A stretch of DNA of 64,000 nucleotides from Bacteroidota bacterium (GCA_016183775.1 JACPDY010000098.1:13547-77546), one strand, 5' to 3'; shown: positions 12,928 through 36,744, counted from the stretch's first letter. Notes: generated from the sequence alone by a model not told the origin. A program made the numbers and translations.

Positions 12928-14907
12928 ATGCCTGATTACAGTCTTCGGCGATCAATAGTTCTTGGAAGTGTATACCTGTTAATTGGTCTGCATATTGCGC
13001 ACTGGAAAATTTCAGGCTGCTCCCTGGCACCACTGGAACTTAATGAAGTGTCGTATACGCTTCATTTAGGAATGATAACTGCCGGATTTATTTTTATGTC
13101 TGCTGCTGTTATTTCAACACTTATTGTGGGCCGTTTTTTTTGTTCCTGGGGATGTCATCTGCTCGCCCTACAGGATTTGTCATCATGGTTACTTTCTAAA
13201 GCCGGCATACGTCCGAAGCCTGTTCGATCCCGTATGTTATTGTGGATACCCATACTTGCCATGTTCAATCTTTTTATTTTTCCACTGGCAAAACGCCTAT
13301 GGGAAGGAAATGGATTGCCCGATTTTCATGTTGTTTCAGATGTACATCAATGGTCTTCATTTATTTCCAATAACCTTTGGAGAAATCTTCCCGGTCCCGG
13401 TATTACAGTATTAACTTTTGTGGTCTGTGGATTTCTGATGATTTACTTTTTGGGATCCAGAAGCTTTTGTAATTACGCATGTCCGTATGGCGCTATTTTC
13501 TCAGTTGTAGATCGCCTGGCTCCCGGCCGGATTGCACTTACCGGTGATTGTACTCAATGCGGGTTATGCACCGCCCGATGCCAGTCAGATATCAGGGTAC
13601 ATGAAGAAATTAACCGTTTTGGAATGGTAGTTAATCCTGCATGTCTGAAAGATCTTGATTGCGTGAGTGTTTGCAACGAACAAGCCATTCATTTCAGTTT
13701 TACCTCGCCTCCTTTATTTGGCAAAGATACCCAGGTAAAAAAATATTATTCTTACTCCCGTTTTGAGGATTTTGTAATCGGTATAATTTTTTTGCTGAGC
13801 CTGTTTATCCTCAGGGGACTTTATGAAACAATTCCGTTTCTGCTTGCAATTGCGATTTCTATTTTATTTGCCAGCTATTTCCTTTTCGCTTACCGGCTTA
13901 TAAAAGAAAAGGGGATCTGTCTTTTTAATAACAACACCCTGAAAAAAATGGGGAGATATACTTCTGTCGGCAAATTTTCGCTGATCATAGGGTTGTTTAT
14001 ATTATCTTTCATGTTACACAGTATATTTATCCGTTGGCATTATTATTCAGGAACACGGGCATATCTTTTAGTCAAAAAATATGCTGAAGTTTCGGCAGGG
14101 GGCTATATGTCGCCTCACCTGTTTAAAACTGCAGACCTGGCATTAGTACATTTTAAAAAAATTGACAGGTGGGGTTTACTGACGCCGGCGAGCATAAATC
14201 GTCAGCTGGCTTCCTTATATCTGATGCAGAGGGATTATCCGTTGGCTGTACAGCATTTGCAAAAAACCTTACTGCAATCACCCGCTGATAATGAGGCGCG
14301 GTTGCGGTTGGGAAATGCATATCACCTTTGGGGTAAAAGCGCTGAAGCTTCCGACGTATTTCGGAATCTGATCTCCGGATTTGGACAACTATTTTCGAAA
14401 CGAGATACAGCGATATTTGCGGGTGCAAATTCGCAATTGGGAGATATTTTAGTGTCTCAAAAAAAATACAGAAGTGCATTTCTTTGTTATTCTGCTGCTT
14501 TATCAATGGATTCCTGCAATGCTGTTCTGTGGCTTTCTTATGGATCCGCCCTGGTAAAAAACGGACAACTCTCCCGGGCAAAAGACTGCCTGATAAAAAG
14601 CCTGGAAATTGATCCCGGCTGTGCACCAGCACATTTTAACCTGGGAACAGTTTACGCGCTCATGAGTCAAACAGAAGATGCTGTACTGCATTACCGCTTG
14701 TCGGCTCAATTGAACCCTAAAAGGGCAGAAACATTCTGTAATCTCGGTATACTTTTTTTCAAACAGCACAAATTTAATGAAGCGGAAGTTGCTCTTGGCA
14801 AAGCAGGGGAATTGGATCCAAATTCAGCTATTATATATTCTTACATGGCCAAGGTGCTTGATGAAAAGAAGGAAAGCCACAGGTCGGATAATATTATTCA
14901 ACAGTAA
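12928..14907 (+). CDS. NapH/MauN-type membrane polyferredoxin (4Fe-4S) fused to C-terminal TPR repeats.
   Basis: N-terminal TM region with FCSWGCHLLALQDL, then CNYACPYGAIFS and CTQCGLCTARCQSD ferredoxin motifs. C-terminal ~300 aa are TPR-like (AxxYxxxG, LxPxxAxxxxNLG repeats). Confidence 0.65.
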   Translation: MPDYSLRRSIVLGSVYLLIGLHIAHWKISGCSLAPLELNEVSYTLHLGMITAGFIFMSAAVISTLIVGRFFCSWGCHLLALQDLSSWLLSKAGIRPKPVRSRMLLWIPILAMFNLFIFPLAKRLWEGNGLPDFHVVSDVHQWSSFISNNLWRNLPGPGITVLTFVVCGFLMIYFLGSRSFCNYACPYGAIFSVVDRLAPGRIALTGDCTQCGLCTARCQSDIRVHEEINRFGMVVNPACLKDLDCVSVCNEQAIHFSFTSPPLFGKDTQVKKYYSYSRFEDFVIGIIFLLSLFILRGLYETIPFLLAIAISILFASYFLFAYRLIKEKGICLFNNNTLKKMGRYTSVGKFSLIIGLFILSFMLHSIFIRWHYYSGTRAYLLVKKYAEVSAGGYMSPHLFKTADLALVHFKKIDRWGLLTPASINRQLASLYLMQRDYPLAVQHLQKTLLQSPADNEARLRLGNAYHLWGKSAEASDVFRNLISGFGQLFSKRDTAIFAGANSQLGDILVSQKKYRSAFLCYSAALSMDSCNAVLWLSYGSALVKNGQLSRAKDCLIKSLEIDPGCAPAHFNLGTVYALMSQTEDAVLHYRLSAQLNPKRAETFCNLGILFFKQHKFNEAEVALGKAGELDPNSAIIYSYMAKVLDEKKESHRSDNIIQQ

Positions 14908-16978
14908 TCTTGCCTGCTGCCAAAGTAGTTCTCTCTGAAAATATTTTGTAGAAATAAAGGCCATTTGTCAGACCCATCTTGCCAATAACTGTTGTACCGG
15001 AAGATATATTTGTCGCTGTCTTAACAATTCGTCCTGTAATATCATAAATTACAAGACGATAATTAATTACTGTACCCTCCTCAATTTTTATGTTTAATAC
15101 ATCTGTGAATAAATTACGGGTAAGCGTGTAATCTGGCATAGATTTATCAAAACGCTTTGCTCTTAGGAGGCAGGTTTTGTCAACAAATGCTGTCCCAGAT
15201 ACCCGGGCGCTTGCCGGATGAAAGTCGGCAGTTGTTATCTCCCAGTCATAAAGACAGGTATAATCACTTTTCCCTAATCCTGAAGTTTTTATTGATAAAA
15301 CACCGGGTATAGTATATGGATAGCTGAGGTTGGCGGTGTTTCCATAAAAGGCATGACCAGAATCGGCTTTAATGAAGAGCATATAATTAAATTCAGGAAT
15401 GACAGGAAATCCAAGTGGAATACGATTCTTTCCGGTAACCAGACTTACTCTTTTTGTATTAAGTTCATTGCCACTCCACTCCAACATTGACAGGGTAAAT
15501 GTTCCTGGATTTTTTGCATAAACTGTTATAGCCTCAAGTGTAAAGGGCGACATACAGTCAAATATCAAGTATGATGAACGTTTATAGTATTTCCCTTCAC
15601 CACTCGTATCTGATTTGCCAACATGACCCGACAGCCCTGGTATTGTTTTCACATTTTCTACAAAGAAGGTTGTTGAGTTTGTAAGAGAAGGGGTCATATA
15701 TGAATTTCCCTTTGCTACAACTCTCCCCCCGATTGGCTTATCGTACCATACAAGGCTTTCAGTGCCAAATGCCTTCAACAGCACAGAGTCACCTGAGCAA
15801 ATTGTATCGCCAATAGTTATGGGAGGAGCAGGTGGATCAAGCATATTCACAGTAAGCGGTGCTGATGTAGCGGTCCCACACGGGCTTGTAAGCGTCACAT
15901 AGTATATTCCTCCTGACTTCACTGTAATAAATGAAGTAGTATCACCGGTTGACCATTTGTAAGAATAGGCGGCTGTTGCAAGAAGTTTTAAACTGTCTCC
16001 CTGACAAATAGTAGTGGGCCCCTGGGGATAAATAATAGCCGTAGGATTTCCGACATTGTCCTGCCTGGACAAATTAACTGGTACTGTTATTATATTATTG
16101 CTCTTGTCCGATTCAAGAAAATGATTGTCAGGATCGATTTCTAATACCAGATAGTAATCATTTCCGTTACATGTTCCTGGTGGAATGTCTATCCACATAC
16201 CATAGAGATTTTTATCATATGTGTCAGTATAGCCGGGAGATATGCCCTGAAATCCCAAAGCACAGTCATAATATCCTTCCCTTCCGGAGTTGGGGAATTT
16301 ATCGTCAAGCAATATATTGTCTTTTGAATCCCGGCAGATACCGGGATAGGAGGAGCATTTTCGCTCATCATCTAAACAGAATGAATTTTTGTAGGCTCCT
16401 GCGACTATTGGCCATTTTTTAGGATTAGGCTCTTTCGGATTTTTAAGCCGTAAGCTCAGAAATTCAAAATTCCCAATATAAAAACTTGAGCTCAGCACGT
16501 TATATGGCATTGCACCCAATACGTGATCAAAATAAGAAACAGAATCCGATGTTTTTTGATAGATGCGCTGTATCACTATATGCTTGGGCTCAAGACCATC
16601 CGGGCATTTACCTATATACCCGGTAGAGAAGGTATCACTGCCGCATACCAAAAAATTTGTAGTACGTAATTCAAGAGGTCCTGATCCGATATTTGGTGTT
16701 GAAACAGAGAGCCTCAGCCTGCCATCATTCATACTAAAATCGGCGTTTTTTTGAGGATATTCAATATACCCTCCCGTATCCGTCAGAATTTGGCGGGAGA
16801 TAGTCATGTCAGGCAACAAATCGCAGTTTATAGTGGTTTCATTAATGCATTTGCTTCCTCTGGCGTCTTTAGTTGTGCAGGATTGGGAATACATAGCAAG
16901 TAATAAAGAAACATAACAAAGTAAAAAGGATATTGAACGTTTAACTAAATGTGAAAAATTTAATACGAATGAAAGCAT
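14894..16978 (-). CDS. Secreted T9SS cargo protein with a lysyl-oxidase-like domain, Ig-like beta repeats and a Por C-terminal sorting domain.
   Basis: Signal peptide. Segment KNSFCLDDERKC...GISPGYTDTYDKNLYGMWIDIPPG...YYLVLEIDPDNHFLESDKSNN parallels the LOX catalytic domain (ASFCLEDTSC...[33 protein letters not shown]...ESDYTNN). C-terminus GLYFYKIFSERTTLAAGKITVE is T9SS-CTD-like. Confidence 0.6.
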   Translation of the reverse strand: MLSFVLNFSHLVKRSISFLLCYVSLLLAMYSQSCTTKDARGSKCINETTINCDLLPDMTISRQILTDTGGYIEYPQKNADFSMNDGRLRLSVSTPNIGSGPLELRTTNFLVCGSDTFSTGYIGKCPDGLEPKHIVIQRIYQKTSDSVSYFDHVLGAMPYNVLSSSFYIGNFEFLSLRLKNPKEPNPKKWPIVAGAYKNSFCLDDERKCSSYPGICRDSKDNILLDDKFPNSGREGYYDCALGFQGISPGYTDTYDKNLYGMWIDIPPGTCNGNDYYLVLEIDPDNHFLESDKSNNIITVPVNLSRQDNVGNPTAIIYPQGPTTICQGDSLKLLATAAYSYKWSTGDTTSFITVKSGGIYYVTLTSPCGTATSAPLTVNMLDPPAPPITIGDTICSGDSVLLKAFGTESLVWYDKPIGGRVVAKGNSYMTPSLTNSTTFFVENVKTIPGLSGHVGKSDTSGEGKYYKRSSYLIFDCMSPFTLEAITVYAKNPGTFTLSMLEWSGNELNTKRVSLVTGKNRIPLGFPVIPEFNYMLFIKADSGHAFYGNTANLSYPYTIPGVLSIKTSGLGKSDYTCLYDWEITTADFHPASARVSGTAFVDKTCLLRAKRFDKSMPDYTLTRNLFTDVLNIKIEEGTVINYRLVIYDITGRIVKTATNISSGTTVIGKMGLTNGLYFYKIFSERTTLAAGKITVE

Positions 16979-17224: not shown

Positions 17225-18451
17225 TCATCCTAAATTCATCTCCCTTTGACCTGAAGATATTACGCTTTCATTTAGATCAAATTTTATTATAAACGTAGTC
17301 CCCTCTCCAAGCTTGCTGGTAAAATCAATTTTCCCGTTCAATAGTTCCACATACTTTGCAACAATATTGAGTCCAAGGCCTGTCCCCTGTATGGCGGAAA
17401 CATTTTCTCCTCTGAAAAATCTTTCGAAAAGATGTACCTGGTCTTCATCAGAAATCCCCATTCCATTATCCTCAACTTTAAGAATTAAATTTGAATGGAG
17501 AGCTTCACTTTTAATGCTTATTCTGCAGTCTTCCTTCGAAAACTTAATTGAATTTGAGATAAGGTTTAATAAAATATGTTTTAATATCTTCTTATCAAGG
17601 ATAATTTCATCCTGGCCAAAGTGATGGTATTCGATTTTCTGCCCGGGTTGGGCCACTAAAAGCATTTCCCGGACAACGTCTGACACCGCATTGTATATCG
17701 AAAACTGCTCTAATGAGGTTGTCATTCCTCCTTCTTCGAGTTTACTAACAGAAAGGATATCATTTAATATATCAGTAAGATGGACTACAGCAGATTTTAT
17801 CCGGTCAATATGCCTGTTTTGTTTTGCTTTTTCGTTTTGTTCACCATATTTCGAGACCAGGGATAGCGAAGACAGAATGGTGGCAAGAGGTGTCCGGAAC
17901 TCATGGGACGCAGTTGAAACAAATCGTGTTTTAAGCTCATTTAATTCCTTTTCGTGCTCTAAAGATTTCTGCAGCTCTTCCTCCGACTTTTTAAGATTTT
18001 TAAGTGCATTTTCCAGAACAACAGTTCGTTCTTTAACACGCTCCTCAAGATAAAAATTTGACTCTTTAAGATCTGCTGTCAATTGCTGCAGGACTTCATG
18101 CTGCTCTATAGCTTTCCGTTCAATTTTTTTATACCTGACAATAACAATCGCGCATGTAATAACAACCATAATAGAAAGCAGACGATTGGCAATGGCTATA
18201 TAGGCAACCGCACCCACAGAAGCTGGCGGCGAAAAAAAATACCCGGAAATTATCAGTACAACTCCCGTCAGGGCAGAGATAACAATGTATCTCTTATCAT
18301 TAGCCCACATTGAAAGAAGCATAACACCTACATACCAGATGCCATCCGCAACACCAAGGGGTGTAAGCAGGTCAATAGCGAATATTATCAACGAGAGGGA
18401 TAGCCCTGTAATAAATATAAAATTCGAACTTGAATTTTTGTTAGGCGGCAT
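17225..18451 (-). CDS. Membrane-bound sensor histidine kinase (HisKA + HATPase_c).
   Basis: H-box ASHEFRTPLATI, plus N- and G-boxes (NLISNSIKFS, GTGLGLNIV). Four N-terminal TM segments without a periplasmic domain. Confidence 0.85.
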   Translation of the reverse strand: MPPNKNSSSNFIFITGLSLSLIIFAIDLLTPLGVADGIWYVGVMLLSMWANDKRYIVISALTGVVLIISGYFFSPPASVGAVAYIAIANRLLSIMVVITCAIVIVRYKKIERKAIEQHEVLQQLTADLKESNFYLEERVKERTVVLENALKNLKKSEEELQKSLEHEKELNELKTRFVSTASHEFRTPLATILSSLSLVSKYGEQNEKAKQNRHIDRIKSAVVHLTDILNDILSVSKLEEGGMTTSLEQFSIYNAVSDVVREMLLVAQPGQKIEYHHFGQDEIILDKKILKHILLNLISNSIKFSKEDCRISIKSEALHSNLILKVEDNGMGISDEDQVHLFERFFRGENVSAIQGTGLGLNIVAKYVELLNGKIDFTSKLGEGTTFIIKFDLNESVISSGQREMNLG

Positions 18452-18468
18452 TTTTTCAGATAATTTGC

Positions 18469-19401
18469 TTATAGCTGCAATTCCTTAAAACTCCTGTTGA
18501 GAAATACGGTTATCATTTCCTTCCGGTATTCCCGGGAGTACACGTCGTTATCCACAATCCTGGACTTTTTAACTGCTATCCGGATCATTTCCTCTTTATT
18601 ATCCGATTGATTTCCTTCAATAACAATTGGTCCGGGATCAATGCAGCCTAATACAATTTTAATTTTCCCCTGTTTATTAATGGTTACTGCGCTAGTTAAA
18701 GATCCAAAGTCCATGCTTTCCCGTGGCCTTAATTTTATAAACCGCGAACGGTGTTCTTCATGAAGCGGGAGGTAAATAGCCTTGATGAGTGATGTTCTTT
18801 TGATCTTGAGAGAATTAATTCCATTCCGGCTATAGATGTCTTCGAGACGAGACATATAGCCTTCGCTATATTCAATGACTTCTACACATGCGTTCATACT
18901 AATTAATGCAATAGCCATATCAGAAACGAACTTTGAAAAGCAATTCTTTTTCCCTCCTGTCGCAATACACGTATCTCCATTACATTTGAGACAATTACCG
19001 ACCGCATTTCTCCACCATTTGGTTTGATTGTAAAATGTACAGCGATTTTCACATAAAATATTCCCCCCGATAGTAGCTGTCTTTCGTATCACGGGCGTTG
19101 CCACTGCATTTGAGGTTTCTATCAGCAATGGGAATTCACTTACGATATCCGGATTCTCTTTTAAAGCATCTAAGGAAACGGCTGCGCCAATTTTCAGGTG
19201 TTTGCCGTTCCGGTTGATTTGTCTCATGTCATCAATATCAGATATATCAATCAGGCAGGATGATGAATTGTTACCGTGCAGCGTATTTACAATGACATCA
19301 GTTCCGCCTGCAATGAAACTAAAATCACTTCCGCATTCGTGAGCCAGTTTTACAGCTTCTTCAACTGTTTTTGGCCGGATATATTTTTCCATCGCAGTCA
19401 T
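18469..19401 (-). CDS. Xanthine-dehydrogenase-family FAD-binding medium subunit with a Cys-rich insertion (HcrB-like).
   Basis: CoxM/XdhB-type FAD domain (FSFIAGGTDVIVN, TIGGN). Has an extra CENRCTFYNQTKWWRNAVGNCLKCNGDTCIATGGKKNC loop like the 4Fe-4S insertion of 4-hydroxybenzoyl-CoA reductase beta subunit. Confidence 0.8.
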   Translation of the reverse strand: MTAMEKYIRPKTVEEAVKLAHECGSDFSFIAGGTDVIVNTLHGNNSSSCLIDISDIDDMRQINRNGKHLKIGAAVSLDALKENPDIVSEFPLLIETSNAVATPVIRKTATIGGNILCENRCTFYNQTKWWRNAVGNCLKCNGDTCIATGGKKNCFSKFVSDMAIALISMNACVEVIEYSEGYMSRLEDIYSRNGINSLKIKRTSLIKAIYLPLHEEHRSRFIKLRPRESMDFGSLTSAVTINKQGKIKIVLGCIDPGPIVIEGNQSDNKEEMIRIAVKKSRIVDNDVYSREYRKEMITVFLNRSFKELQL

Positions 19402-19402
19402 T

Positions 19403-22204
19403 TTACACTATAGCCCTTTTTTCAAGGCGCTTCTTCTTTATTTTGTTTAATACATCTTCAGCACTTATTGGCAAACGGGTTATCCTGACTCCTACTGCAT
19501 TAAATACAGCATTTGCTATGGCCGGAATTACCGGATGCAAAGCGCCTTCGCCGCATTCTTTTGCACCGAATGGGCCTTCCGGATCATTTGATTCAATAAT
19601 ATTTGTGTGAATATCAGGGGTGTCGAGCGTGGTGGGGATTTTATAATCAAGAAAATTGTTGTTCAGTAATAGGCCATTGAAATATTTCATTTGTTCAGAC
19701 ATTGCCTGTCCGATTCCCATGTGCCATGAGCCTTCCAATTGACCTTCCACAGCGAGCGGATTTATCGCCTTCCCGCAATCATGGGCTCCCCAAACATTTA
19801 ATACTTTTACAGATCCGGTTTCCACATCTACTTTTACTTCTGCCACACAAGCGCCAAAGGAATAGGATGGACTCAACCCCGCACCTGATCCTTTAAAATC
19901 GCCGCCGAGCTTTGGTGAGATATATTTGCCGCTCACACTTACCGCACCACGATGTGCTGTAAGAATATCAATCGCTTCATCCCAGGTTAAGTTAATTTCC
20001 CTGTTATTACTAAAAATCCGATTGCCGGAAAAATTCAACTCCTCAATTGCCACCCTGGTTTTTTTTGCAATTGCAGTACAAATTTCAGTCCTGAGATTTT
20101 CAGCAGCATTTTTTGCGGCATTTCCCGCCATAAATGTTACACGGCTTGAATAACTTCCTAAGTCAACAGGAGTAAGGAGTGTATCGGCGGAAAGGACAAA
20201 TATTTTATCAAAACTTATACCCAATACCTCAGCCACTATCATGGCAAGCATTGTATCGCTGCCCTGGCCTATGTCGCTTGCCCCGGAAGCGATCACTATG
20301 CGTCCATCAAAATCAACTTTAAGGTGAACCACTGATTGCGGTAATTCGTTCCATACAATAGGTAAAGCGCTTCCACTGATAAAGAAACCACAGCCTACTC
20401 CGAGACCATAACCATATTCCAGCTTTCCAAAGCGCTTCTTCCAATCGGACTGCTCCATGACTTTTAGCAGGGATTCCCGGCTTCCGTTCGAAGTAATGCG
20501 GTAATGGCCAACTGTAAGAGTGTTTGAGTCCAGAAAATTCTTCATTCTGAGTTCACAGGGGTCCATTTTAATTTCATGTGCCAGATCATCAATAACAGAC
20601 TCTACGGCAAACCGGGAATTTACAGCGCCGTGACCCCGCATTGCCCCGCATTGGGGTTTATTGGTATACACGCGAAAGGTCCGGAAACCAAAGTTGTTAA
20701 GCTTATAGGGAGCTTGCAGCAATACGCCATTGTAATAAGATGTAACTACTCCAAAGCTGCCATAAGCTCCGCCGTCAATCGCAATATCCGCATCAAGAGC
20801 CGTGAAGGTGCCATCTTTTGATAGTCCCATTTCTATTGTCATCTTTGAAGGATGTCGGCCATGATTCGTAATAAAAACTTCCTCGCGGGAAAGCCTTACG
20901 CGCACAGGACGTCCGATTTTTTTTGCCAGGTAAGAAATAATAATCTCGTGAGGAAAAGGATCACTTTTCCCGCCAAACCCGCCGCCAACATAAGGTTTAA
21001 TGACCCTGACGCGGCTTAGTGGCAGTTCCATAACCCTGGCGAGCGACCGATGAAGGTAATGAGGAACCTGAGTAGCTGATATTATTGTCAACCCGTTTTC
21101 ATTCCAAAAAGCCGTTGCAGCGTGAGGTTCGGTAAAGCCATGATTAATACCTTCAAATTCAAATGACATTTTACTTGTAACATCCGATTCACTCAGTCCT
21201 TGTTTCTGATTTCCAAAACGCAGTTCGGCTTTCTTATGTATGTTGTTATTAAACTTGCAATGTTCATGTATCTTCTCATTAGTTCCGACATCGTTCAAAG
21301 AGTCTTCAATGTGTAGAAATTCTTTAATGGTATTGTATTTAACCACGATCTTCCTGCATGCTTCAAGAGCCAGGGCCTCTGTATCAGCCGCCACTGCTGC
21401 AACAATTTCTCCAACATACCGTACTTTGTCAATTGCGAGTGCTGTTTCATCCTGTGAAATAGGCAGAACGCCGAACGTAACCGGCAACTCTTTTCCTGTT
21501 ACAATATAATGCACGCCTTCCATTCCCGCTGCTGCAGAAATATCAATGCTTTCAATTTTGGCATGAGGGTAAATACTTCTCAGAAATTTACAATGAAGGG
21601 CATTCTTAATCTCTATATCGTCTGCATATTCAGCTGTTCCCTTTACTTTCCTTTCAGATTCAATATAGGGCTTTCGTTTACCAATAACGTTCAAAGTATT
21701 TAACTCGGGTGTATCAATATTTTCCGATGGAACTATTCCTCCCGCTATTTCGGATGAATATTCAGCAACAGCCTCTATAATTTTCTTGTATCCCGTGCAG
21801 CGACATAAATTTCCTGAAAGAGCCGTCTTAATTTCTTCTGTTGACGGATTAACGGTTTTGCTGACAAATTCGAGTGCGGTAATTACCATACCGGGAGTAC
21901 AAAATCCGCACTGAATCGCACCCTTTTCAATAAATTTTTGCTGTAGTTTATGGAGTTCACCGTTTTTAGAGAGCGCTTCGATAGTTATTATTTCAGCGTT
22001 CCCGCAGCGGTGAGCCGGAGTTATGCAACTTAAGGCTGGTTTTCCATTAACTAATACCGTACATGCTCCGCAACTGCCTTGCTCACAACCAATTTTAGTC
22101 CCCGTTAATCTTACTTTCTCACGAATCACTTTCGAAAGCATTTCATGTTCCTCTGCAAGCAGGGTAATAAGACTTCCGTTTATTCTGAGTTGAAGTTCTT
22201 TCAT
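19403..22204 (-). CDS. Fused [2Fe-2S] small subunit plus molybdopterin-binding large subunit of a xanthine dehydrogenase/aldehyde oxidase-family molybdoenzyme.
   Basis: N-terminal GCEQGSCGACTV...CGFCTPGM...CRCTGY 2Fe-2S motifs, followed by ~770 aa of aldehyde oxidase/xanthine dehydrogenase Mo-binding domains. Confidence 0.9.
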   Translation of the reverse strand: MKELQLRINGSLITLLAEEHEMLSKVIREKVRLTGTKIGCEQGSCGACTVLVNGKPALSCITPAHRCGNAEIITIEALSKNGELHKLQQKFIEKGAIQCGFCTPGMVITALEFVSKTVNPSTEEIKTALSGNLCRCTGYKKIIEAVAEYSSEIAGGIVPSENIDTPELNTLNVIGKRKPYIESERKVKGTAEYADDIEIKNALHCKFLRSIYPHAKIESIDISAAAGMEGVHYIVTGKELPVTFGVLPISQDETALAIDKVRYVGEIVAAVAADTEALALEACRKIVVKYNTIKEFLHIEDSLNDVGTNEKIHEHCKFNNNIHKKAELRFGNQKQGLSESDVTSKMSFEFEGINHGFTEPHAATAFWNENGLTIISATQVPHYLHRSLARVMELPLSRVRVIKPYVGGGFGGKSDPFPHEIIISYLAKKIGRPVRVRLSREEVFITNHGRHPSKMTIEMGLSKDGTFTALDADIAIDGGAYGSFGVVTSYYNGVLLQAPYKLNNFGFRTFRVYTNKPQCGAMRGHGAVNSRFAVESVIDDLAHEIKMDPCELRMKNFLDSNTLTVGHYRITSNGSRESLLKVMEQSDWKKRFGKLEYGYGLGVGCGFFISGSALPIVWNELPQSVVHLKVDFDGRIVIASGASDIGQGSDTMLAMIVAEVLGISFDKIFVLSADTLLTPVDLGSYSSRVTFMAGNAAKNAAENLRTEICTAIAKKTRVAIEELNFSGNRIFSNNREINLTWDEAIDILTAHRGAVSVSGKYISPKLGGDFKGSGAGLSPSYSFGACVAEVKVDVETGSVKVLNVWGAHDCGKAINPLAVEGQLEGSWHMGIGQAMSEQMKYFNGLLLNNNFLDYKIPTTLDTPDIHTNIIESNDPEGPFGAKECGEGALHPVIPAIANAVFNAVGVRITRLPISAEDVLNKIKKKRLEKRAIV

Positions 22205-22205
22205 T

Positions 22206-22946
22206 TTAAATCATATTACTTCCAATACTTTTACCGCCATCCACATAAATTGTTTGACCTGTTATAAACTGTGTCGTTTCTGCAGCCAGGAAGGAAACTG
22301 CGGTTGCCACATCCTCCGGTTTTCCCATGGACTTTGTTGGCTGCGCTTCAATTAATTTTCCTAAAATTTCCTTTTCCAATTTTTGTGTAAGCGGTGTGTC
22401 AATTAGCCCCGGGGCTATTGCATTTACAAACACATTATATTTGCCGAGCTCGAGGGCTAAAGCTCGTGTAAGCGAAACAACACCTGCTTTGGATGCGGAG
22501 TAATTACTTTGTCCGCGATTCCCAAGCCATGCGCGTGAAGATATGTTAATGATTCGCCCCCCATTTTGCCTTTTCATAATTATTGCCGCTTCCCGGCACA
22601 TTAACCAGGTACCTTTCAGGTTTATATTTATTACTGTATCAAATTCGGCAGTAGTCATGTTCCAGATCAGGTTATCACGAATAACGCCGGCATTGTTTAC
22701 CAGTATATCAACCTGTTTGTGCTTCGAAATAATTTTCTGAAATAATTGTTGGATGATTTTCTCTTTGGTGATGTCGGCTTTGGCAAAGCTCAATTTGTCT
22801 TTGCCGAATTCAGCCAAAAGCTTTTTGCCGCCATTTTCATCTATATCAATCGCGATTACAAAACAGTTATCTGCAATGAGTTTCTTTACGATCGCTTTTC
22901 CAATACCTTTTCCTGCGCCGGTTACGAGTGCAATTCTTTTTCCCAT
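22206..22946 (-). CDS. SDR-family NAD(P)-dependent oxidoreductase.
   Basis: TGAGKGIGKAI Rossmann motif, NNAG, and YSASKAG catalytic triad region. Confidence 0.85.
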   Translation of the reverse strand: MGKRIALVTGAGKGIGKAIVKKLIADNCFVIAIDIDENGGKKLLAEFGKDKLSFAKADITKEKIIQQLFQKIISKHKQVDILVNNAGVIRDNLIWNMTTAEFDTVININLKGTWLMCREAAIIMKRQNGGRIINISSRAWLGNRGQSNYSASKAGVVSLTRALALELGKYNVFVNAIAPGLIDTPLTQKLEKEILGKLIEAQPTKSMGKPEDVATAVSFLAAETTQFITGQTIYVDGGKSIGSNMI

Positions 22947-23710
22947 TGTTTCACATTGTTTTTAACTAGTATTAATTTCGCCAAAATGCTAAACGCTATT
23001 TCATCCGGCCCTTCGGCTCCGATATTAATACCCATGGGCATATCAACTGTTTCCAGTTTTTCTTCCGGTATGTTTAGCCCCTGTACAAATATTTTTTTTG
23101 TCATTTCAACTTTCCGCCGGCTCCCGATCATGCCCAAATATGCGAATGGCTTTTTTAGGCAAAAGGCCAGAATATCTCTGTCCTTTGGATGACTGTGAGT
23201 CATAATACAGATAAAAGTGTTTTCATCGAATGGAAGCAGCTGCAATGCCTTTTGACAGGGTATATTCATTTTATTGACCTCCTCAGTAGTACATTGGTTA
23301 ATGTATTCTTTACGTTCATCAATTAAAACAATTTCGAAATTGAGATTGCTGGCATACCTAGCAAGTGCCTGGCCGGTATGCCCGGCACCAAAAATGTATA
23401 ATTTGTTCATTTTCATAATCGGCTCAATGTAAATGTCCACCGTTCCTCCACAACACATATTATGTTGGTTCAATAAATCATGCCGATAAAGCTTTGGCCT
23501 CTTCTCACTAATTGTCGACAATGCATTACCAATAACTTTTCTTTCTAATTCTCCTCCTCCTATGGTTCCGTAAATTTGACCATCGGAATAAACTATCATC
23601 TTTGCACCAATCTTTCTGGGAGTACTTCCATGTGTATTCACAACGGTGCATAGTGCCACTCCCTGATTAATTGCTTCAGCTTCAGCTATCTTTTTATATA
23701 AGTCCTTCAC
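22922..23710 (-). CDS. XdhC/CoxI-family molybdoenzyme maturation factor.
   Basis: Family-typical NAD-binding-like central region (KLYIFGAGHTGQALA). Sits in the Mo-enzyme operon. Confidence 0.75.
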   Translation of the reverse strand: MKDLYKKIAEAEAINQGVALCTVVNTHGSTPRKIGAKMIVYSDGQIYGTIGGGELERKVIGNALSTISEKRPKLYRHDLLNQHNMCCGGTVDIYIEPIMKMNKLYIFGAGHTGQALARYASNLNFEIVLIDERKEYINQCTTEEVNKMNIPCQKALQLLPFDENTFICIMTHSHPKDRDILAFCLKKPFAYLGMIGSRRKVEMTKKIFVQGLNIPEEKLETVDMPMGINIGAEGPDEIAFSILAKLILVKNNVKQWEKELHS

Positions 23711-24314
23711 TTATTTTTACTTTTTGCTCAATAGCCCTTTCGTAATCATCCGGAGTATTTATATTGGTCAATATATATTCGTCGTTAACAATAATGTTCC
23801 GCCTTGGAAACCCCGACAAAACACTTCTGAGATTTAAATCCTGATCAGGAATTACTGAACTCACATACCGTATAATATTTTTTGAGATTACGATAGGATG
23901 ACCGTTTTTGCCCTGGTAAGAAGGAATAGTGTATCCATATGAATTTCTGTTCTCCAGCAAATTTTTAATGGTTTCCATATTCACAAAGGGGTTATCAATA
24001 TTCTGAATGAAACAACAATCCATGTCCATCATCCTTTCCATCCCGAGTTTAATAGAATGAAATCTTCCGGCTTCACGTGCAGGGCTTCTGACTATTTCAG
24101 AAGTTGGCAGTACTTCGTCAATGTATTTGCTCCACTCATCACTGCAGAAATCTGAATTCAATACAACACAGATATTTTTTATTCCCGCATTCCAATATCT
24201 GTCAACAATTCTTTTCAGAAACGTTTCACCCTGGTACAAGAGATAGGCTTTCGGAAAATTCATCCGTTCTGATTTCCCTCCTGCCAAAATGAGTGCTCCG
24301 GTCATATTATTCAT
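23694..24314 (-). CDS. MobA/MocA-like molybdenum cofactor nucleotidyltransferase (probable cytidylyltransferase for the MCD cofactor).
   Basis: MTGALILAGGKSERM N-terminal signature. ORF opens at 24371, but the likely start is Met at 24314 or 24305, clear of the palindrome at 24363-24376. Confidence 0.75.
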   Translation of the reverse strand: MNNMTGALILAGGKSERMNFPKAYLLYQGETFLKRIVDRYWNAGIKNICVVLNSDFCSDEWSKYIDEVLPTSEIVRSPAREAGRFHSIKLGMERMMDMDCCFIQNIDNPFVNMETIKNLLENRNSYGYTIPSYQGKNGHPIVISKNIIRYVSSVIPDQDLNLRSVLSGFPRRNIIVNDEYILTNINTPDDYERAIEQKVKISEGLI

Positions 24315-24362
24315 TCTCAGTCCATTTATATACGAAAGTATTCTTATTCGCCTTTTAATATT

Positions 24363-24376
24363 ATGATTCAAATCAT
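24363..24376. promoter_or_regulatory. Candidate Crp/Fnr-family site ATGATTCAAATCAT in the divergent promoter region between the Mo-enzyme operon and the bcr/hgd-like operon.
   Basis: Perfect palindrome. 48 bp upstream of the 24424 ATG and ~50 bp upstream of the mobA-like start. Confidence 0.5.
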
Positions 24377-24423
24377 AGTATTTTCATTGGCATTGGAGTT
24401 ATTTTGTTTAAAATAAATTTGAA

Positions 24424-25587
24424 ATGAAATCTCTTGATGCCATACTGAAAGAATGCGAAGAGCTTGCTTTCGATTTAAATTTTTCACGTGCTAAAAAATG
24501 GAAAGCGGAACACAAGGATCGGATTTTAGTAGGGTATCTACCGATTTATATTCCGCGCGAGATCATACATGCCGCAAGTGGTCTTCCGGTTGGCATCATG
24601 GGGGCGGGCGACAGAAAACAAATAATCAAAGGCGACGCCTATTATCAGTCCTATATTTGCCATTTGCCCCGTGGCATTATTGAAATGGCACTCGATACTA
24701 ATTTAAGCGGGTTTGACGGGTTCCTGTTTCCTGCGATTTGCGATTGCGTAAGAAATCTTTCCGGAATGTTTAAGCTCTCTCATAAAGGAAAATTTCAAAG
24801 ATATTTTGATTACCCTCAAAACTTTGACGCTTTCGTTGGTGGAACTTTTTACGTTCAGGAAATGGAAAAAGTAATGGAAGACATGTATAATATTAACAAA
24901 GTTAAAGTTGCTGAAGAAAATATAAATAAGGCGATTATACTCTATAATAGAAATCGAAAGTTGATCGAAGAAATATATAATATCCGGCAACAATATCCCT
25001 GGAGGTTATCTGCGGTAGAAACATATTTCATCCTCCGGGCGGGAATCACAATACCTGTTGAAGAGCATAATAAAATACTAGATCAGGTATTGGTTTATAT
25101 TAATGAAGAACGGGGTGAACCAATGGATAATATTCGTGTTGTTGTTTCGGGCTCGTTTTGTGAACAACCTCCTGTCGGGTTAATAAAATCAATAGAAATG
25201 GCAGGATGTTATATTGTGGATGATGACTTTATGCTTGGGTCACGGTGGATACAGGGCGAAATTAATTCGGCTGCTGATAATCCTTTGAAATCCCTTGCGA
25301 ATGCGTATATCAATCAAAGTACATTTTCATCCGCGTATTATGATGTGGGAAATCCGAAGGGAAAACGATTGGTTGAATTGGCAAAAGCGAGAAATGCAGA
25401 CGGAATTATTTTTTCCGCGGCCAGCTTCTGTGATCCGGCTTTGCTCGATAGGCCGCAGATGCAGAAGGAATGTGATGAAGCGGGAATTCCCCATATCAAT
25501 TTTCAGTTTCATGAAAACACAGGACAGTTTAAGGTTATTAAAGAACAGGCAGGTACATTCTCAGATTCGATTAAACTATGGGCCTGA
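24424..25587 (+). CDS. 2-Hydroxyacyl-CoA dehydratase / benzoyl-CoA reductase family component (HgdB/BcrC-like).
   Basis: 387 aa, the size of BcrC (386 aa). Conserved Cys for the [4Fe-4S] cluster (ICDCVRN, SFCDPAL). HgdB-type N-terminus. Confidence 0.75.
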   Translation: MKSLDAILKECEELAFDLNFSRAKKWKAEHKDRILVGYLPIYIPREIIHAASGLPVGIMGAGDRKQIIKGDAYYQSYICHLPRGIIEMALDTNLSGFDGFLFPAICDCVRNLSGMFKLSHKGKFQRYFDYPQNFDAFVGGTFYVQEMEKVMEDMYNINKVKVAEENINKAIILYNRNRKLIEEIYNIRQQYPWRLSAVETYFILRAGITIPVEEHNKILDQVLVYINEERGEPMDNIRVVVSGSFCEQPPVGLIKSIEMAGCYIVDDDFMLGSRWIQGEINSAADNPLKSLANAYINQSTFSSAYYDVGNPKGKRLVELAKARNADGIIFSAASFCDPALLDRPQMQKECDEAGIPHINFQFHENTGQFKVIKEQAGTFSDSIKLWA

Positions 25588-25769
25588 AGCAAGTCAATAA
25601 TACCGGCTATTCTGCAATAATTTTCCATAAAGAGATTTTTGGATCGATGAAAATTGCCCTGATATCGGAATGTATAATTAAAGTCATTTCATTTGGTTAA
25701 AGGACTGTATTAAAAGCCGGGGTGATTAAATTTTTCTTCGGCAGTTATTTATTTTTTAAAAAACAGATA

Positions 25770-27071
25770 ATGGCAAATCCACAAGAGGCTATCAAGGAGA
25801 AAAGTATGAATCTCCAGAAGGAAATGCTGGCAAAGCAATTTCACGAGTTAAGTATGGCAAAAGAACTTGGGAAAAAAGTTGTATACACTTTTGTTCCCGG
25901 AAATCTTACTGAGCTGATTCTTTCATTTGATATGCTCCCTGTGTATCCTGAAATTAATGCACTTCAATCGGGAATGAGAAAAAAATCAGGTTCATTTATA
26001 AAGGATGCTGAAAAAATCGGGTTTTCGGAAGATGTGTGTACATATGTAAAATGCGACATAGGCATGATGTTGAATGGAAATATCGGACCTACAGGAGAAA
26101 AGCTTCCCAGTCCCGATTTACTTCTGCTCAGTTACACAGGCTGCTTTACTTTTCTCAAGTGGTTCGAAAACCTGGAGAGGCTTTATCCGGGAGTTCCGGT
26201 TGCTATGCTTCATACGCCCTACCAAGAGGACGGAAAGATAACCAAAGATCAGATCGAGTATATGGTAAAGCAGCTGAAGGAAGATGTAATTCCTAAAATG
26301 GAAAAGGTTTCAGGAAAAAAGTATGATCCTTCAAGATTGTCGAAAATGATGGAGAATTCGGTAAAGGCCGAAGATCTGCTTGTAAAAGTTCTGGAAAGTG
26401 CAAAAAATGTTCCTTCGCCAATTGATGCATATTTTGCCGGGGTGTATTATATAGGCCCCATATTCACTGCGTTTCGGGGAACGGAAGAATCGGTAAATTA
26501 TTATACAGAGCTTTGGAATGAGGTTCAGGATCGGATGAAACTTGGATTGGGACCGGTTACGCCGGAAGGCGAGATGAAAGAGCAAAAGTTTCGCTTAGTA
26601 GTGGAAGGCCCTCCAAACTGGACAAATTTTCGGGAATTTTGGAAAATATTTTACGACATGGGTGCAGTTATTGTGGCTTCTTCCTATACAAAAGTAGGGG
26701 GTGTTTATGACTTAGGATTCCGACATGATCCCAAAGAACCATTGGAAAGCTTATCCAGGTATTGTATGGGATGCTATACCAACATGAATTTACCGCAGCG
26801 TGTTGGCCTTCTTGAGAAATATGTGAAGGAGTATAAAGCGGATGGCTTCCTTATTAATTCCATTAAAAGTTGTAATTCCTTTTCGGCCGGACAGCTTATG
26901 ATTATGCGTGAAATTGAACAACGAACGGGAGTTCCGGTTGGCTTTATCGAAAGCGACCTGGTCGATCCGCGGTATTTCTCATATGCGAATATTAAAAACC
27001 GCCTGGAATCGTACTTCCAGATGCTGGAACAACGAAAAATTATTTTGAAGCAGGAAGGCATAGCTGCCTGA
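25770..27071 (+). CDS. 2-Hydroxyacyl-CoA dehydratase / benzoyl-CoA reductase family component (HgdA/BcrB-like).
   Basis: Track ORF opens at 25722, but the likely start is MANPQEA at 25770. ~433 aa, HgdA/BcrB-sized. Conserved Cys (CTYVKCD, GCFTF, SCNSFSAG). Confidence 0.75.
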   Translation: MANPQEAIKEKSMNLQKEMLAKQFHELSMAKELGKKVVYTFVPGNLTELILSFDMLPVYPEINALQSGMRKKSGSFIKDAEKIGFSEDVCTYVKCDIGMMLNGNIGPTGEKLPSPDLLLLSYTGCFTFLKWFENLERLYPGVPVAMLHTPYQEDGKITKDQIEYMVKQLKEDVIPKMEKVSGKKYDPSRLSKMMENSVKAEDLLVKVLESAKNVPSPIDAYFAGVYYIGPIFTAFRGTEESVNYYTELWNEVQDRMKLGLGPVTPEGEMKEQKFRLVVEGPPNWTNFREFWKIFYDMGAVIVASSYTKVGGVYDLGFRHDPKEPLESLSRYCMGCYTNMNLPQRVGLLEKYVKEYKADGFLINSIKSCNSFSAGQLMIMREIEQRTGVPVGFIESDLVDPRYFSYANIKNRLESYFQMLEQRKIILKQEGIAA

Positions 27072-27097
27072 TTAATAAATAAAAACTGTATACTAAA

Positions 27098-28516
27098 ATG
27101 AATAAATACTATCTCGGGGTTGATCTGGGATCTACTACCTCAAAAGCGGTCATCATCGACGAAAGGGATGAAATTATCGGACGTGGAATTACTAATACCC
27201 GCGCTAACTATGCAGTTGCTGCTGATATTGCCCGCGATGAAGCCCTTTATAACGCCCGATTCTTCGTGCTTCAAAAAAAATTGGAGGAAGAAATAAAAGC
27301 AAAACCTGAGTACAGGAAATACATCACCGACCTCGAAAGTGTTTTTCAATACGAGCAATTCAAAGTTCGCCTTGATAGATTGGGCTTGGAGTTATTGAAA
27401 ACGTGCAATACTTTTTTTAAAGATGAAAAACAGAAGGAAGAAATCATCGGCCACCTGAGAAATATCCGAAAGGCATTCAAGCCGGTAATCAAACGCGACT
27501 ATCTCTACAATAACCTGGGTTCTAAAAATCAATTCTTCAGGGATATTGTTTCGGAAAAATATAATGAAGAAGTGAATAAACTTGACATGTCTCTATTTGA
27601 GCCACTCATGACTGTATGGGACAAAAGTATTAGTCCCGCCGAAAATGAGCGTATTCAATTCAACTTTCAGGAACTTGTTCACAAAGCGATGGGAGAACTG
27701 AAGGATAAGTATAAAAATCTTCCTGATACGGTTGCGGATAACACAAGTGTAAATTTTGACGCGGAAATGAATTTACTTAAGGGTAATTTCAACCATGTTT
27801 CAGAAACGCTTCGCGAACATATTGATGAGATCGCTGAGATCGAATTCAACATTACCAGCATGACCGGAACAGGTTATGGTCGTGCGCTATTACCTTTTCC
27901 ACAGGATTGTATTCGGTCCGAAATTTTGTGTCATGCCTTTGGCGCGCACGCAGTTTTCCCGGAAACCAGAACAGTACTTGATATTGGCGGGCAGGATACC
28001 AAAGCTATACAAGTTGATAAATATGGCCTTGTTACAAGTTTCCAGATGAACGACAGATGCGCGGCAGGATGCGGAAGATACCTGGGCTACATTGCTGATG
28101 AAATGAGCATTTCACTGAATGAGCTTGGTCCCATGGCCATGAAGGCAGAAAAGGAAGTGACCATTTGTTCTACCTGTACCGTATTTGCCGGAGCAGAATT
28201 GCGTGAACTTACCAATCTTGGAGAGAAACGGGAAGACATACTTGGAGGATTGCACAAGGCAATAATCATGCGTGCTATGTCCTTAATTGCACGCTCCGGA
28301 GGAGTATTTAATGAATTTACATTTACAGGCGGAGTTGCACGGAATCCGGCAGTTATAAAATACCTGGGTCAGCTTGTAAAAGAAAATTACGGAGATGGCA
28401 TAAAAATAAATATTCATGCTGATTCCATATTCATGGGAGCCCTTGGCGGTGCAATGTTTGCCAGAAGAAATATTCAGGCAGATTTACCAATTGTGAAAAA
28501 AGAAAAGGTAATATAA
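27098..28516 (+). CDS. BadF/BadG/BcrA/BcrD-type ATPase (electron-transfer activase) with a ~200-aa internal insertion (BcrA-like large ATPase).
   Basis: LGVDLGSTTSKAVI N-terminal ATPase motif, TGYGR, and DRCAAGCGRYLG cluster-bridging Cys. Insertion between residues ~45 and ~250 is absent from HgdC. Confidence 0.8.
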   Translation: MNKYYLGVDLGSTTSKAVIIDERDEIIGRGITNTRANYAVAADIARDEALYNARFFVLQKKLEEEIKAKPEYRKYITDLESVFQYEQFKVRLDRLGLELLKTCNTFFKDEKQKEEIIGHLRNIRKAFKPVIKRDYLYNNLGSKNQFFRDIVSEKYNEEVNKLDMSLFEPLMTVWDKSISPAENERIQFNFQELVHKAMGELKDKYKNLPDTVADNTSVNFDAEMNLLKGNFNHVSETLREHIDEIAEIEFNITSMTGTGYGRALLPFPQDCIRSEILCHAFGAHAVFPETRTVLDIGGQDTKAIQVDKYGLVTSFQMNDRCAAGCGRYLGYIADEMSISLNELGPMAMKAEKEVTICSTCTVFAGAELRELTNLGEKREDILGGLHKAIIMRAMSLIARSGGVFNEFTFTGGVARNPAVIKYLGQLVKENYGDGIKINIHADSIFMGALGGAMFARRNIQADLPIVKKEKVI

Positions 28517-29407: not shown

Positions 29408-29451
29408 AGTAAAATACGGTTTAATTTATACTCCCCATATATCACGAAAAC

Positions 29452-30195: not shown

Positions 30196-30870
30196 AATGG
30201 AAATGCCTGATGTGCCGATGAGATTTTCCCGAATCGCAAACATTACAAGTGATGCCCTGTTGTTAACATTGAGTTTACTCATGAGGTTCTTTCTGTGAGT
30301 TGTTACAGTATGCACACTTATAAAAAGCTTATCGGCGATTTGCTTGCTTGGAAGCCCATCTGCAATAAGTTGCAATATCTGAATCTCGCGCTCTGAAATT
30401 TTAACTCCGCTGCAGGAAACATTTGATGAAATGAGCATACTCTGCTCCATTAGCAGATCAACAATTTTCCCGCACAGAAATTTTTTACTCATTGAAGTAC
30501 TGTAAATAGATTCTATGATTTCTTCTTTCCCACAATCATTCCATAAATGGCTCGTAATTCCATATTCAATTGACTTTGAAACTATAGATTTAGGCTGAAG
30601 GGACGTGATGGCCAAAATATTTACCATTGGAAAATGTTCCCGGATAATAGAGATGTCATCTAAACAAAAATAGCGTGATGAGTAGTCCATTATAAGTACA
30701 TCCGGGCTATTGAGCAACAATTTTTCACTAAGTTCCTCCGCCTTTTCCGCCTCGCCTACTATAGAAAAATCTTCAACCTGGTCAATAATGGATTGAAGTC
30801 CTTTACGGATCAGGTAGCTATTATCAGCAATAAGTATTTTTATTTTTCTCATAAAACAATCCATATTCAT
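30184..30870 (-). CDS. LuxR/NarL-family response regulator (receiver + HTH_LuxR).
   Basis: KILIADNSYLIRKGL, then DVLIMD receiver region. C-terminal LSEREIQILQLIADGLPSKQIADKLFISVHTVTTHRKNLMSKL. Confidence 0.85.
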   Translation of the reverse strand: MNMDCFMRKIKILIADNSYLIRKGLQSIIDQVEDFSIVGEAEKAEELSEKLLLNSPDVLIMDYSSRYFCLDDISIIREHFPMVNILAITSLQPKSIVSKSIEYGITSHLWNDCGKEEIIESIYSTSMSKKFLCGKIVDLLMEQSMLISSNVSCSGVKISEREIQILQLIADGLPSKQIADKLFISVHTVTTHRKNLMSKLNVNNRASLVMFAIRENLIGTSGISISTN

Positions 30871-36742: not shown

Positions 36743-36744
36743 TT

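Follow-up and report, generated by a model that had tools for sequence, protein, structure and literature searches.

Which reaction is catalysed by a xanthine oxidase (XO)-family molybdoenzyme whose genes lie back to back with those for a benzoyl-CoA reductase (BCR) in a member of the Bacteroidota? This question is raised by a stretch of 64,000 nucleotides from a Bacteroidota bacterium (GCA_016183775.1 JACPDY010000098.1:13547-77546), hereafter the window, in which positions 18469-24314 hold five closely packed minus-strand genes for a MocA-like protein, XdhC, a short-chain dehydrogenase/reductase (SDR), a fused 2Fe-2S/Mo subunit and a FAD subunit. To our knowledge, the 4-hydroxybenzoyl-CoA reductases (4-HBCRs) that have been characterised biochemically or genetically are all proteobacterial (Thauera, Rhodopseudomonas and Geobacter), and our literature searches found no paper on the anaerobic benzoyl-CoA pathway or on Hcr in Bacteroidota. 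We consider it probable, at about two chances in three, that a dehydroxylating 4-HBCR of a divergent Bacteroidota type is encoded here, together with the proteins for maturation of its cofactor. This reading is built on gene content, cofactor-binding motifs, homology, conserved synteny and operator conservation, from which we infer the substrate, the direction of catalysis and the electron donor. A preliminary description of the locus had already proposed a 4-HBCR-like enzyme; HcrA and HcrB are indeed the closest relatives of its subunits, but the three NCBIfam equivalog cut-offs for 4-HBCR are missed, and the enzyme is therefore classed here as HcrA-like and not as a canonical orthologue.

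The catalytic subunit is a single open reading frame (ORF) of 933 amino acids (aa) at 19403-22204 on the minus strand, in which Fer2/Fer2_2 (residues 7-146), hammerhead (189-292), MoCoBD_1 (319-557) and MoCoBD_2 (582-863) Pfam domains follow one another, as anticipated in the preliminary description, which had called it a fusion of the 2Fe-2S and Mo subunits. Residues 1-150 (21755-22204, minus strand) comprise two [2Fe-2S] domains with all eight cluster cysteines visible (CEQGSCGAC...C and CGFC...CRC), and residues 166-933 (19403-21709, minus strand) form the catalytic part, which binds molybdopterin. The alignment with HcrA of Thauera aromatica (1rm6_A) covers residues 166-921 and scores 598.8 bits (E 1.8e-178). 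The second PDB family, the aldehyde oxidoreductase of D. gigas (MOP, 1SIJ), scores 336 bits; it shares the [2Fe-2S]-Mo fusion (~907 aa) and is an oxidative aldehyde enzyme without a FAD subunit or a [4Fe-4S] cluster. Further down the ranking are mammalian xanthine dehydrogenase (XDH) and aldehyde oxidase (AOX) together with CoxL of M. smegmatis (~245-256 bits), other CoxL proteins (~200), nicotinate dehydrogenase (203), PaoC (183.5) and the large subunit of the Methylobacillus AOX (within 183-186 bits). Among the NCBIfam models, TIGR03194 (4-HBCR alpha) ranks first at 818.8 bits and XdhA next at 562.9 bits. The wide margins in both collections (599 versus 336 and 819 versus 563) were counted in favour of an enzyme of the HcrA type.

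The core motif residues of the active site, which were mapped via pairwise alignments and a 191-sequence alignment, follow HcrA as well. Gln379 corresponds to XDH Gln767 and HcrA Gln214 and is conserved; Arg523-Gly-His525 matches the RGH of HcrA, where XDH carries Phe914 in place of the histidine; and the catalytic glutamate of GAKE-x-GEG corresponds to HcrA Glu726. At the position of XDH Glu802 the protein has Ser414 (Ser or Thr throughout the clade), and at that of XDH Arg880 it has Gly493, both as in HcrA. The motif CGAMRGHGA, again shared with HcrA, occupies the position of VAYRCSFR in CoxL, by which the active-site check proposed with the first description was answered in favour of HcrA. 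Four better-known enzymes were rejected as candidates on these grounds: CO dehydrogenase, because CGAMRGHGA stands where VAYRCSFR is missing and CoxL proteins reach only 204-254 bits; xanthine dehydrogenase, because Glu802 and Arg880 are replaced by Ser414 and Gly493; a PaoABC-type oxidase, with 183.5 bits for PaoC against 598.8 for HcrA; and nicotinate dehydrogenase, with 203 bits against 599.

The FAD-binding medium (beta) subunit, HcrB-like and 310 aa long (18469-19401, minus strand; PF00941 FAD_binding_5, 115.6 bits), has 1rm6_B (HcrB) as its best PDB match (E 4e-35) and conserves the AGGTD and TIGGN motifs. The Cys-rich peptide reported for it, CENRCTFYNQTKWWRNAVGNCLKCNGDTCIATGGKKNC, was found by translation exactly at 18940-19053 (minus strand), which corresponds to residues 117-154. 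Residues 110-212 align with residues 111-213 of T. aromatica HcrB with zero gaps (HMMER), and, counted along this alignment, Cys121, Cys137, Cys145 and Cys154 fall on HcrB Cys122, Cys138, Cys146 and Cys155, the positional match that the preliminary description had asked to be examined. These four HcrB residues are reported to be the [4Fe-4S] ligands (Unciuleac et al., 2004). The loop agrees with HcrB in detail (RCTFYNQ-x2-WWR-x3-G-x-CLK-x2-GD-x-C); its four likely ligands are kept without exception in 52 Bacteroidota homologues and likewise in the medium subunits from two further HcrA-like lineages (L084 and L085); the remaining cysteines of the stretch are not invariant. Alignments to the medium subunits of CoxM, CutM, XdhB, nicotinate dehydrogenase and quinoline oxidoreductase end at residue 115-116, just before the Cys-rich stretch, which is therefore an insertion relative to these proteins and, as claimed, absent from CoxM/XdhB-type subunits. 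An extra [4Fe-4S] cluster is thus predicted on the four-Cys loop. An AlphaFold2 model of the subunit has a good fold (predicted TM-score 0.81), with a predicted local distance difference test below 50 in the Cys loop, and a Foldseek search with this model placed 1rm6_B on top and scored CoxM-type subunits almost equally; the modelled structure is consistent with the assignment and adds little to it, and the argument is carried by the sequence alignment.

The loop had also been presented as the hallmark of a reductive enzyme. Its match to HcrB stands, whereas its exclusivity does not: the medium subunits of two aldehyde oxidoreductases, 5y6q_B and PaoB (5g5g_B), align through the same Cys-rich stretch. 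Both enzymes work oxidatively, and a loop of this kind is therefore no proof in itself of the reductive direction. PaoABC of E. coli and the Methylobacillus aldehyde oxidase are heterotrimeric members of the XO family whose FAD subunit is Cys-rich at the same place, and, since the Foldseek scores fail to separate HcrB from CoxM-type subunits, one may ask whether the operon encodes an oxidative enzyme, a hydroxylase or an aldehyde oxidoreductase (similar to PaoABC, or acting as a purine or N-heterocycle dehydrogenase), that has only the [4Fe-4S] loop in common with HcrB. We regard this as very improbable. The alignment to 5y6q_B needs gaps where that to HcrB needs none, and the cysteines of the PaoABC and Methylobacillus loops are differently spaced; the large subunit scores only 183-186 bits with PaoC and the Methylobacillus AOX, 203 with nicotinate dehydrogenase and 204-254 with CoxL, as against 599 with HcrA; the residues diagnostic of CoxL (VAYRCSFR) and of XDH (Glu802 and Arg880) are all missing; and the genomic context, described below, is that of an anaerobic, FNR-linked benzoyl-CoA pathway.

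The two enzyme subunits are the last products of a gene series transcribed in the order MocA-like protein, XdhC, SDR, 933-aa fused subunit and FAD subunit, followed by a sensor histidine kinase. The first gene (23694-24314) encodes a MocA-like NTP_transf_3 nucleotidyltransferase of 205 aa (PF12804, 88 bits; TIGR03310, 91.6 bits, below cut-off), which is predicted to convert the Mo cofactor into its cytosine dinucleotide form. Its start was read from the sequence as the ATG at 24314 in preference to an upstream TTG, because a product of 205 aa agrees with relatives of 203-204 aa. The second (22922-23710) encodes an XdhC-family chaperone for Mo cofactor insertion or sulfuration (262 aa; PF02625 and PF13478; TIGR02964, 151.3 bits), and the third (22206-22946) a FabG/BbsD-like SDR (246 aa; adh_short_C2, 205 bits); all three lie on the minus strand, and their Pfam domains bear out the earlier naming of an xdhC, a mocA-like and an SDR gene. 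Neighbouring genes in this series of five overlap or are separated by 1-bp gaps, and they therefore form a single operon. The membrane histidine kinase (17225-18451, minus strand; 408 aa; HisKA and HATPase_c), which had been counted as part of the operon, begins 17 bp further downstream and completes a compact minus-strand operon of 17225-24314; it lies outside 18469-24314, however, and occurs in only 3 of the 44 related loci introduced below, which makes it a lineage-specific addition. A scan for sigma-70 promoters and terminators performed no better than on shuffled sequence; such a scan does not cover Bacteroidota promoters.

Several observations weigh against an assignment to 4-HBCR in the strict sense. 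The three best NCBIfam matches remain well below their cut-offs (TIGR03194 alpha, 818.8 versus 994.55 bits; TIGR03193 gamma, 166.3 versus 257.8; TIGR03195 beta, 191.4 versus 404.55), BLASTP identity to Thauera HcrA is only 41%, and the FAD subunit is only 28% identical to the characterised beta subunit. Judged by sequence identity, the 933-aa protein lies far outside the tight canonical HcrA clade. At 107 of the 323 positions that are at least 90% conserved in both the canonical and the Bacteroidota clade, the two clades have different fixed residues. Such differences are found in the loop that aligns with XDH Phe1009/Thr1010; this loop, within which the alignment to XDH is gapped, reads CSHFVSGTsTPKHWTGEPHAT in canonical sequences and CGFFISGSALPIiWNElPQSv in the Bacteroidota, and a second stretch differs as TPKDNGSYSSR versus TPVDlGSYSSR. 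Several basic or polar residues that are conserved in canonical HcrA have hydrophobic counterparts in the Bacteroidota clade, with Lys452, His453, His443 and Lys516 replaced by Ile, Ile/Val, Phe and Val. Three features of gene content point the same way. A search by Cys motif of all small ORFs found no small 2[4Fe-4S] ferredoxin ORF in the 64-kb window, whereas the Thauera bcr cluster encodes one. No benzoate- or 4-hydroxybenzoate-CoA ligase was recognisable there, the adjacent AMP-ligase resembling oxalate, malonate and fatty-acid ligases. Finally, the characterised hcrCAB operon is not known to contain a counterpart of the SDR.

Several of these differences would be accommodated if the enzyme belonged to the same ferredoxin-driven class and likewise supplied the benzoyl-CoA pathway, but worked in the reductive direction on another para-substituted aryl thioester, such as protocatechuyl-, vanilloyl-, 4-aminobenzoyl- or p-coumaroyl-CoA. 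The clade-specific residues in the pocket-equivalent loops and the missed equivalog cut-offs favour this alternative, as does the divergence among the Bacteroidota clade, some ten uncharacterised clades and canonical HcrA, which are only 40-54% identical to each other, a spread that suggests functional radiation; the conserved SDR and the atypical ligase would likewise point to a different upstream pathway. There is also a precedent in Ucdh, an XO-family enzyme 32.7% identical to 4-HBCR that dehydroxylates a non-CoA phenol (PMC12771579). On the other hand, the motifs of the catalytic core agree fully with HcrA, and the repeated tight linkage of the module to Bcr and to Dch/Had/Oah argues for a product that is benzoyl-CoA or another substrate of BCR. 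In addition, 4-hydroxybenzoyl-CoA is a common funnel intermediate for phenolic and tyrosine-derived compounds. A different substrate therefore appears to us unlikely, though it deserves to be kept in view, and 4-hydroxybenzoyl-CoA is retained as the substrate in what follows.

The position of the enzyme in its family was examined by an exhaustive search of 1.84 billion cluster representatives, which yielded 5295 relatives at E <= 1e-30. The nearest representative, P0241, is fused, 62% identical and stands for the Bacteroidota clade; about ten further uncharacterised clades follow at 42-54% identity, and the canonical representative P0253, which is 61% identical to the Thauera protein, at 41%. 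By comparison, identity to Thauera HcrA does not fall below 74% among its best 120 relatives, many of which carry the name 4-HBCR alpha. A neighbour-joining tree unites canonical HcrA, the intermediate clades and the Bacteroidota clade with a bootstrap support of 84/100, or 93/100 with four more representatives, and the Bacteroidota clade itself with 100/100; since it was built from 100 sequences and 742 columns with corrected p-distances, included partial outgroup sequences and was not a maximum likelihood tree, these values are indicative. Other XO-family representatives (~35-38% identity) fall outside the superclade that contains HcrA. In the phylogeny suggested in the preliminary description, the large subunit thus joins HcrA, apart from the N-heterocycle hydroxylases and CO dehydrogenase. 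The enzyme is a divergent variant within the HcrA superclade, some members of which are already named 4-HBCR subunits by automated pipelines.

The clade is widely distributed. The exact medium subunit was found on one Logan contig, and 1911 database proteins match it at E <= 1e-10. Among the best 120 of these, which are 54-98% identical, the organisms named are metagenome-assembled genomes (MAGs) of Bacteroidia, Flavobacteriales, Sphingobacteriales and Chitinophagaceae, and JGI or NCBI have already given several of the proteins the label '4-hydroxybenzoyl-CoA reductase subunit beta'. With one genome per GTDB species, at least 258 genomes encode a relative of the medium subunit; the best 80 of the 258 are almost all labelled Bacteroidota MAGs, from lakes, groundwater, peat and sludge, and none is more than 72% identical. 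The patterns used in this genome scan were Bacteroidota-specific, although their alignment included Thauera HcrB, and proteobacterial loci were not retrieved with them. The fusion of the gamma and alpha parts is present in all 71 full-length orthologues.

Comparison of 44 related Bacteroidota loci, each of at least 15 kb, revealed a conserved arrangement. The core order mocA-xdhC-SDR-hcrCA-hcrB recurs across them and is preceded either by a divergent bcrCBA(D) cluster or by co-directional thiolase-had-oah-dch-HCDH/ECH genes, and in 29 of the 44, Bcr or Dch/Had/Oah are encoded no more than 10 kb away. The genes korAB follow hcrB directly in three loci (L017, L022 and L059), and korA alone occurs in L041. 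The SDR is kept in 28 of the 37 large related loci and adjoins a thiolase in four. In the PDB, the SDR is most similar to the aryl-hydroxyacyl-CoA dehydrogenase BbsD (7pcs_B), which scores 186.7 bits and leads FabG by a narrow margin; the occurrence of the SDR beside a thiolase hints at side-chain beta-oxidation that would yield an aroyl-CoA.

In the window itself, the divergence from a bcr operon that had been noted earlier is exact: a 109-bp region (24315-24423) separates the MocA-like gene from bcrC, which starts at 24424 on the plus strand. The genes bcrC, bcrB and bcrA (24424-28516, plus strand) were assigned to a class I, Thauera-type, ATP-dependent BCR by TIGR models, with scores above the cut-off for bcrC (TIGR02263, 461.4 versus 421 bits) and bcrB (TIGR02260, 696.9 versus 487) and a best match below it for bcrA (TIGR02259, 436.4 versus 578). 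A bcrD-like ATPase subunit (34158-34997, plus strand; TIGR02261, 308.4 bits, 4.5 bits below the cut-off of 312.85) opens a second pathway operon (34158-46213), which also encodes an AMP-ligase, an HGD-D protein, a ketopantoate-reductase/activase fusion, a thiolase, Had, Oah, Dch and an HCDH-ECH fusion. The genes had, oah and dch, for hydration, oxidation and hydrolysis of the dearomatised ring, lie at 41232-44189 on the plus strand; had and oah exceed their cut-offs (TIGR03201, 445 versus 339 bits; TIGR03200, 591 versus 464), and dch has TIGR03189 as its best match below the cut-off (224 versus 292.5). On the other side of the Hcr operon, a two-subunit 2-oxoacid:ferredoxin oxidoreductase of the KorAB type (9475-12395, minus strand; TIGR03710, 651 bits with a cut-off of 483; TIGR02177, 262 bits) is the probable source of low-potential electrons; in Thauera, an oxidoreductase of this type regenerates ferredoxin for BCR. 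The window further contains narGHI and a dihaem cytochrome c gene (47499-55125), with a NarG-like protein of 1207 aa, which implies a nitrate-respiring facultative anaerobe and fits an ATP-dependent class I BCR. A protein with a type IX secretion system (T9SS) tail, also encoded in the window, identifies the host as a member of the Bacteroidota.

An FNR-type palindrome had been reported in the region shared by the two operons. It is present as aTGATTCAAATCAt (aTGAT-N4-ATCAt) at 24363-24376, and its centre is 54-55 bp away from either start codon. Thirteen copies of the core TGAT-N4-ATCA stand in the window where 2.4 would be expected, a number reached in none of 100 shuffles, and nine of the 13 sites lie just upstream of genes (282-293, 4178-4189, 24364-24375, 30924-30935, 34022-34033, 55136-55147, 56406-56417, 56449-56460 and 61003-61014). 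The site at 282 precedes a U32 UbiU/TrhP-like gene, that at 34022 precedes bcrD and that at 55136 precedes the nar/cytochrome c operon; genes for a LuxR response regulator and a TonB receptor also stand behind such sites, which together form an apparent FNR-type regulon. The 12-mer at 4178, TGATTCAAATCA, is identical to the intergenic site and lies 29 bp upstream of a gene for an Fnr-like Crp-family regulator (4218-4964, plus strand; cNMP_binding and HTH_Crp_2; best NCBIfam match Fnr, 104.7 bits, below cut-off), the candidate binder of the palindrome. Its cysteines (Cys22-x2-Cys25-x8-Cys34 and Cys124) form a pattern that we take to resemble the FNR cluster motif, and we infer the pairing of this regulator with the TGAT-N4-ATCA site. 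The exact core is kept in 12 of 20 orthologous bcrC/mocA intergenic regions, in which the central bases vary, and constitutes a phylogenetic footprint.

Taken as a 4-HBCR, the enzyme may be envisaged to work as follows. Reduced ferredoxin, regenerated by KorAB, would supply low-potential electrons, which would enter at the extra [4Fe-4S] cluster on the loop of the FAD subunit (Cys121/137/145/154) and pass via FAD to the pair of [2Fe-2S] clusters that the catalytic polypeptide carries within its first 150 residues, and from there to the Mo of a molybdopterin cytosine dinucleotide (MCD) cofactor; the MocA-like enzyme would synthesise this cofactor and XdhC would insert it. At this Mo, the para-hydroxyl group of an aroyl-CoA, most likely 4-hydroxybenzoyl-CoA, would be removed to give benzoyl-CoA, which BcrCBA(D) would dearomatise and Dch, Had and Oah would process. 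The Fnr-like regulator, acting at the shared TGAT-N4-ATCA site, would turn on both operons under anoxia.

Compared with HcrCAB of T. aromatica (PDB 1RM6/1SB3), the predicted cofactor set is the same (MCD-Mo, two [2Fe-2S] clusters, FAD and an extra [4Fe-4S] cluster on a beta-subunit loop of ~40 residues), as are the alignment positions of the four loop cysteines, the gene order gamma-alpha-beta, the core motifs TQVP, GGGFG, CGAMRGHG and GAKE-x-x-EG, and the association with an ATP-dependent BCR and a KorAB-type oxidoreductase. In contrast to that three-subunit enzyme, gamma and alpha are fused here in one ORF; identities are 41% (alpha) and 28% (beta), and the gamma part scores ~143 bits; the equivalog cut-offs are missed, and the pocket-equivalent loop and 107 conserved positions are fixed otherwise. 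Genes for an SDR, XdhC and a MocA-like protein are moreover built into the operon, the host belongs to the phylum Bacteroidota, and a search for a ferredoxin gene nearby found none. For PcmRST of Geobacter, the literature that we found gives only 'high similarity' to the Thauera enzyme.

Two intermediate lineages, P0244 (fused, in L084) and P0242 (unfused, in L085), are 50-54% identical to the alpha part of the window protein and have the same four-Cys loop, but their loci lack the SDR and have other neighbours, and L085 is devoid of aromatic-pathway context. In L084 (GCA_018335975.1, 8001-12450), a fused gamma-alpha subunit of 949 aa, 47% identical to the Thauera protein and 50% to that of the window, is accompanied by the FAD subunit with the four-Cys loop and a MocA-like gene, and its neighbours encode two BcrAD ATPases, a Zn-dependent alcohol dehydrogenase (Zn-ADH), an acyl-CoA dehydrogenase and a 2-oxoacid:ferredoxin oxidoreductase; it is a separate, independent fused lineage. 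Within the XO family, Ucdh (UcdCFO), the urolithin C dehydroxylase of Enterocloster, is the second enzyme known to dehydroxylate a phenol reductively; it is XdhC-dependent and acts on a hydroxyl para to an electron-withdrawing carbonyl (PMC12771579). By its published description, it differs from the enzyme considered here in using NADH as donor, in its non-CoA substrate and in having no link to benzoyl-CoA reductase. A 4Fe-4S cluster close to FAD was reported not to be common to Ucd and Uxd (PMC12658268).

No existing concept is overturned by an hcr locus in Bacteroidota, and an hcr homologue beside bcr would be expected by a specialist; its breadth in the phylum, the fusion and the integrated SDR might not be. 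What emerges is a deep sister clade with fused subunits, linked to a Thauera-type pathway and widespread in uncultured Bacteroidota of freshwater, groundwater, peat and sludge. Provided that the enzymes are active, common polymer- and protein-degrading Bacteroidota would also mineralise phenolics without oxygen, and attributions in the carbon cycle and in bioremediation would change for anoxic nitrate-bearing habitats. The natural gamma-alpha fusion and the altered pocket loop would offer a means to study how an XO-family enzyme is made to run reductively.

A wider role for the module may also be sketched. In the second pathway operon, an atypical AMP-ligase of 581 aa (34997-36742), a single HGD-D (HadB-like) protein of 405 aa (36745-37962) and a 609-aa protein in which a ketopantoate-reductase (ApbA/PanE) domain is joined to a dehydratase/BCR-type activase ATPase (37959-39788) follow one another; parts of this set recur in four related loci (L009, L058, L064 and L072), and the genes at 34997-39788 may encode a 2-hydroxyacyl-CoA, possibly aryl-lactyl-CoA, dehydratase system. 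One could imagine that the activase fusion, the HGD-D protein and the AMP-ligase turn an aryl-pyruvate or aryl-lactate into an aryl-acryloyl-CoA, that the SDR, thiolase and HCDH-ECH proteins shorten its side chain to (4-hydroxy)benzoyl-CoA, and that Hcr then removes the hydroxyl group and Bcr dearomatises the ring. The Hcr module would then be one arm of an undescribed, FNR-controlled anaerobic route for tyrosine, phenylalanine or phenylpropanoids in nitrate-respiring Bacteroidota. We hold this complete route to be speculative and rather improbable in the form given; were it true, the Bacteroidota, with at least 258 species genomes that encode the medium subunit, would constitute a large overlooked guild of anaerobic aromatic degraders. 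A gene of the tryptophanase/tyrosine phenol-lyase (TPL) family lies at 2719-4098 and recurs near the module in nine loci (L002, L003, L017, L023, L025, L036, L041, L042 and L059); the beta-eliminating lyase of the window scores 521 bits with TnaA and 510 with TPL, both below the cut-offs.

Some further features of the surroundings were noted. The genes bcrA and bcrD are parted in the window by ~5.6 kb (28583-34157) that encode two acyltransferases, a LuxR-type response regulator and a TonB-dependent receptor, and bcrD directly follows bcrA in four related loci (L002, L061, L076 and L078). Next to korAB, a hemerythrin gene (8926-9462), which has a counterpart downstream of hcrB in 18 of the 37 large related loci, encodes a hemerythrin-domain protein that may serve in oxygen sensing or in the protection of oxygen-sensitive enzymes. 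Between korAB and the histidine kinase gene lie the genes for a 659-aa membrane protein with Fer4_5 4Fe-4S domains and TPR repeats (12928-14907) and for a lysyl-oxidase-like/Ig protein sorted by the T9SS (14894-16978).

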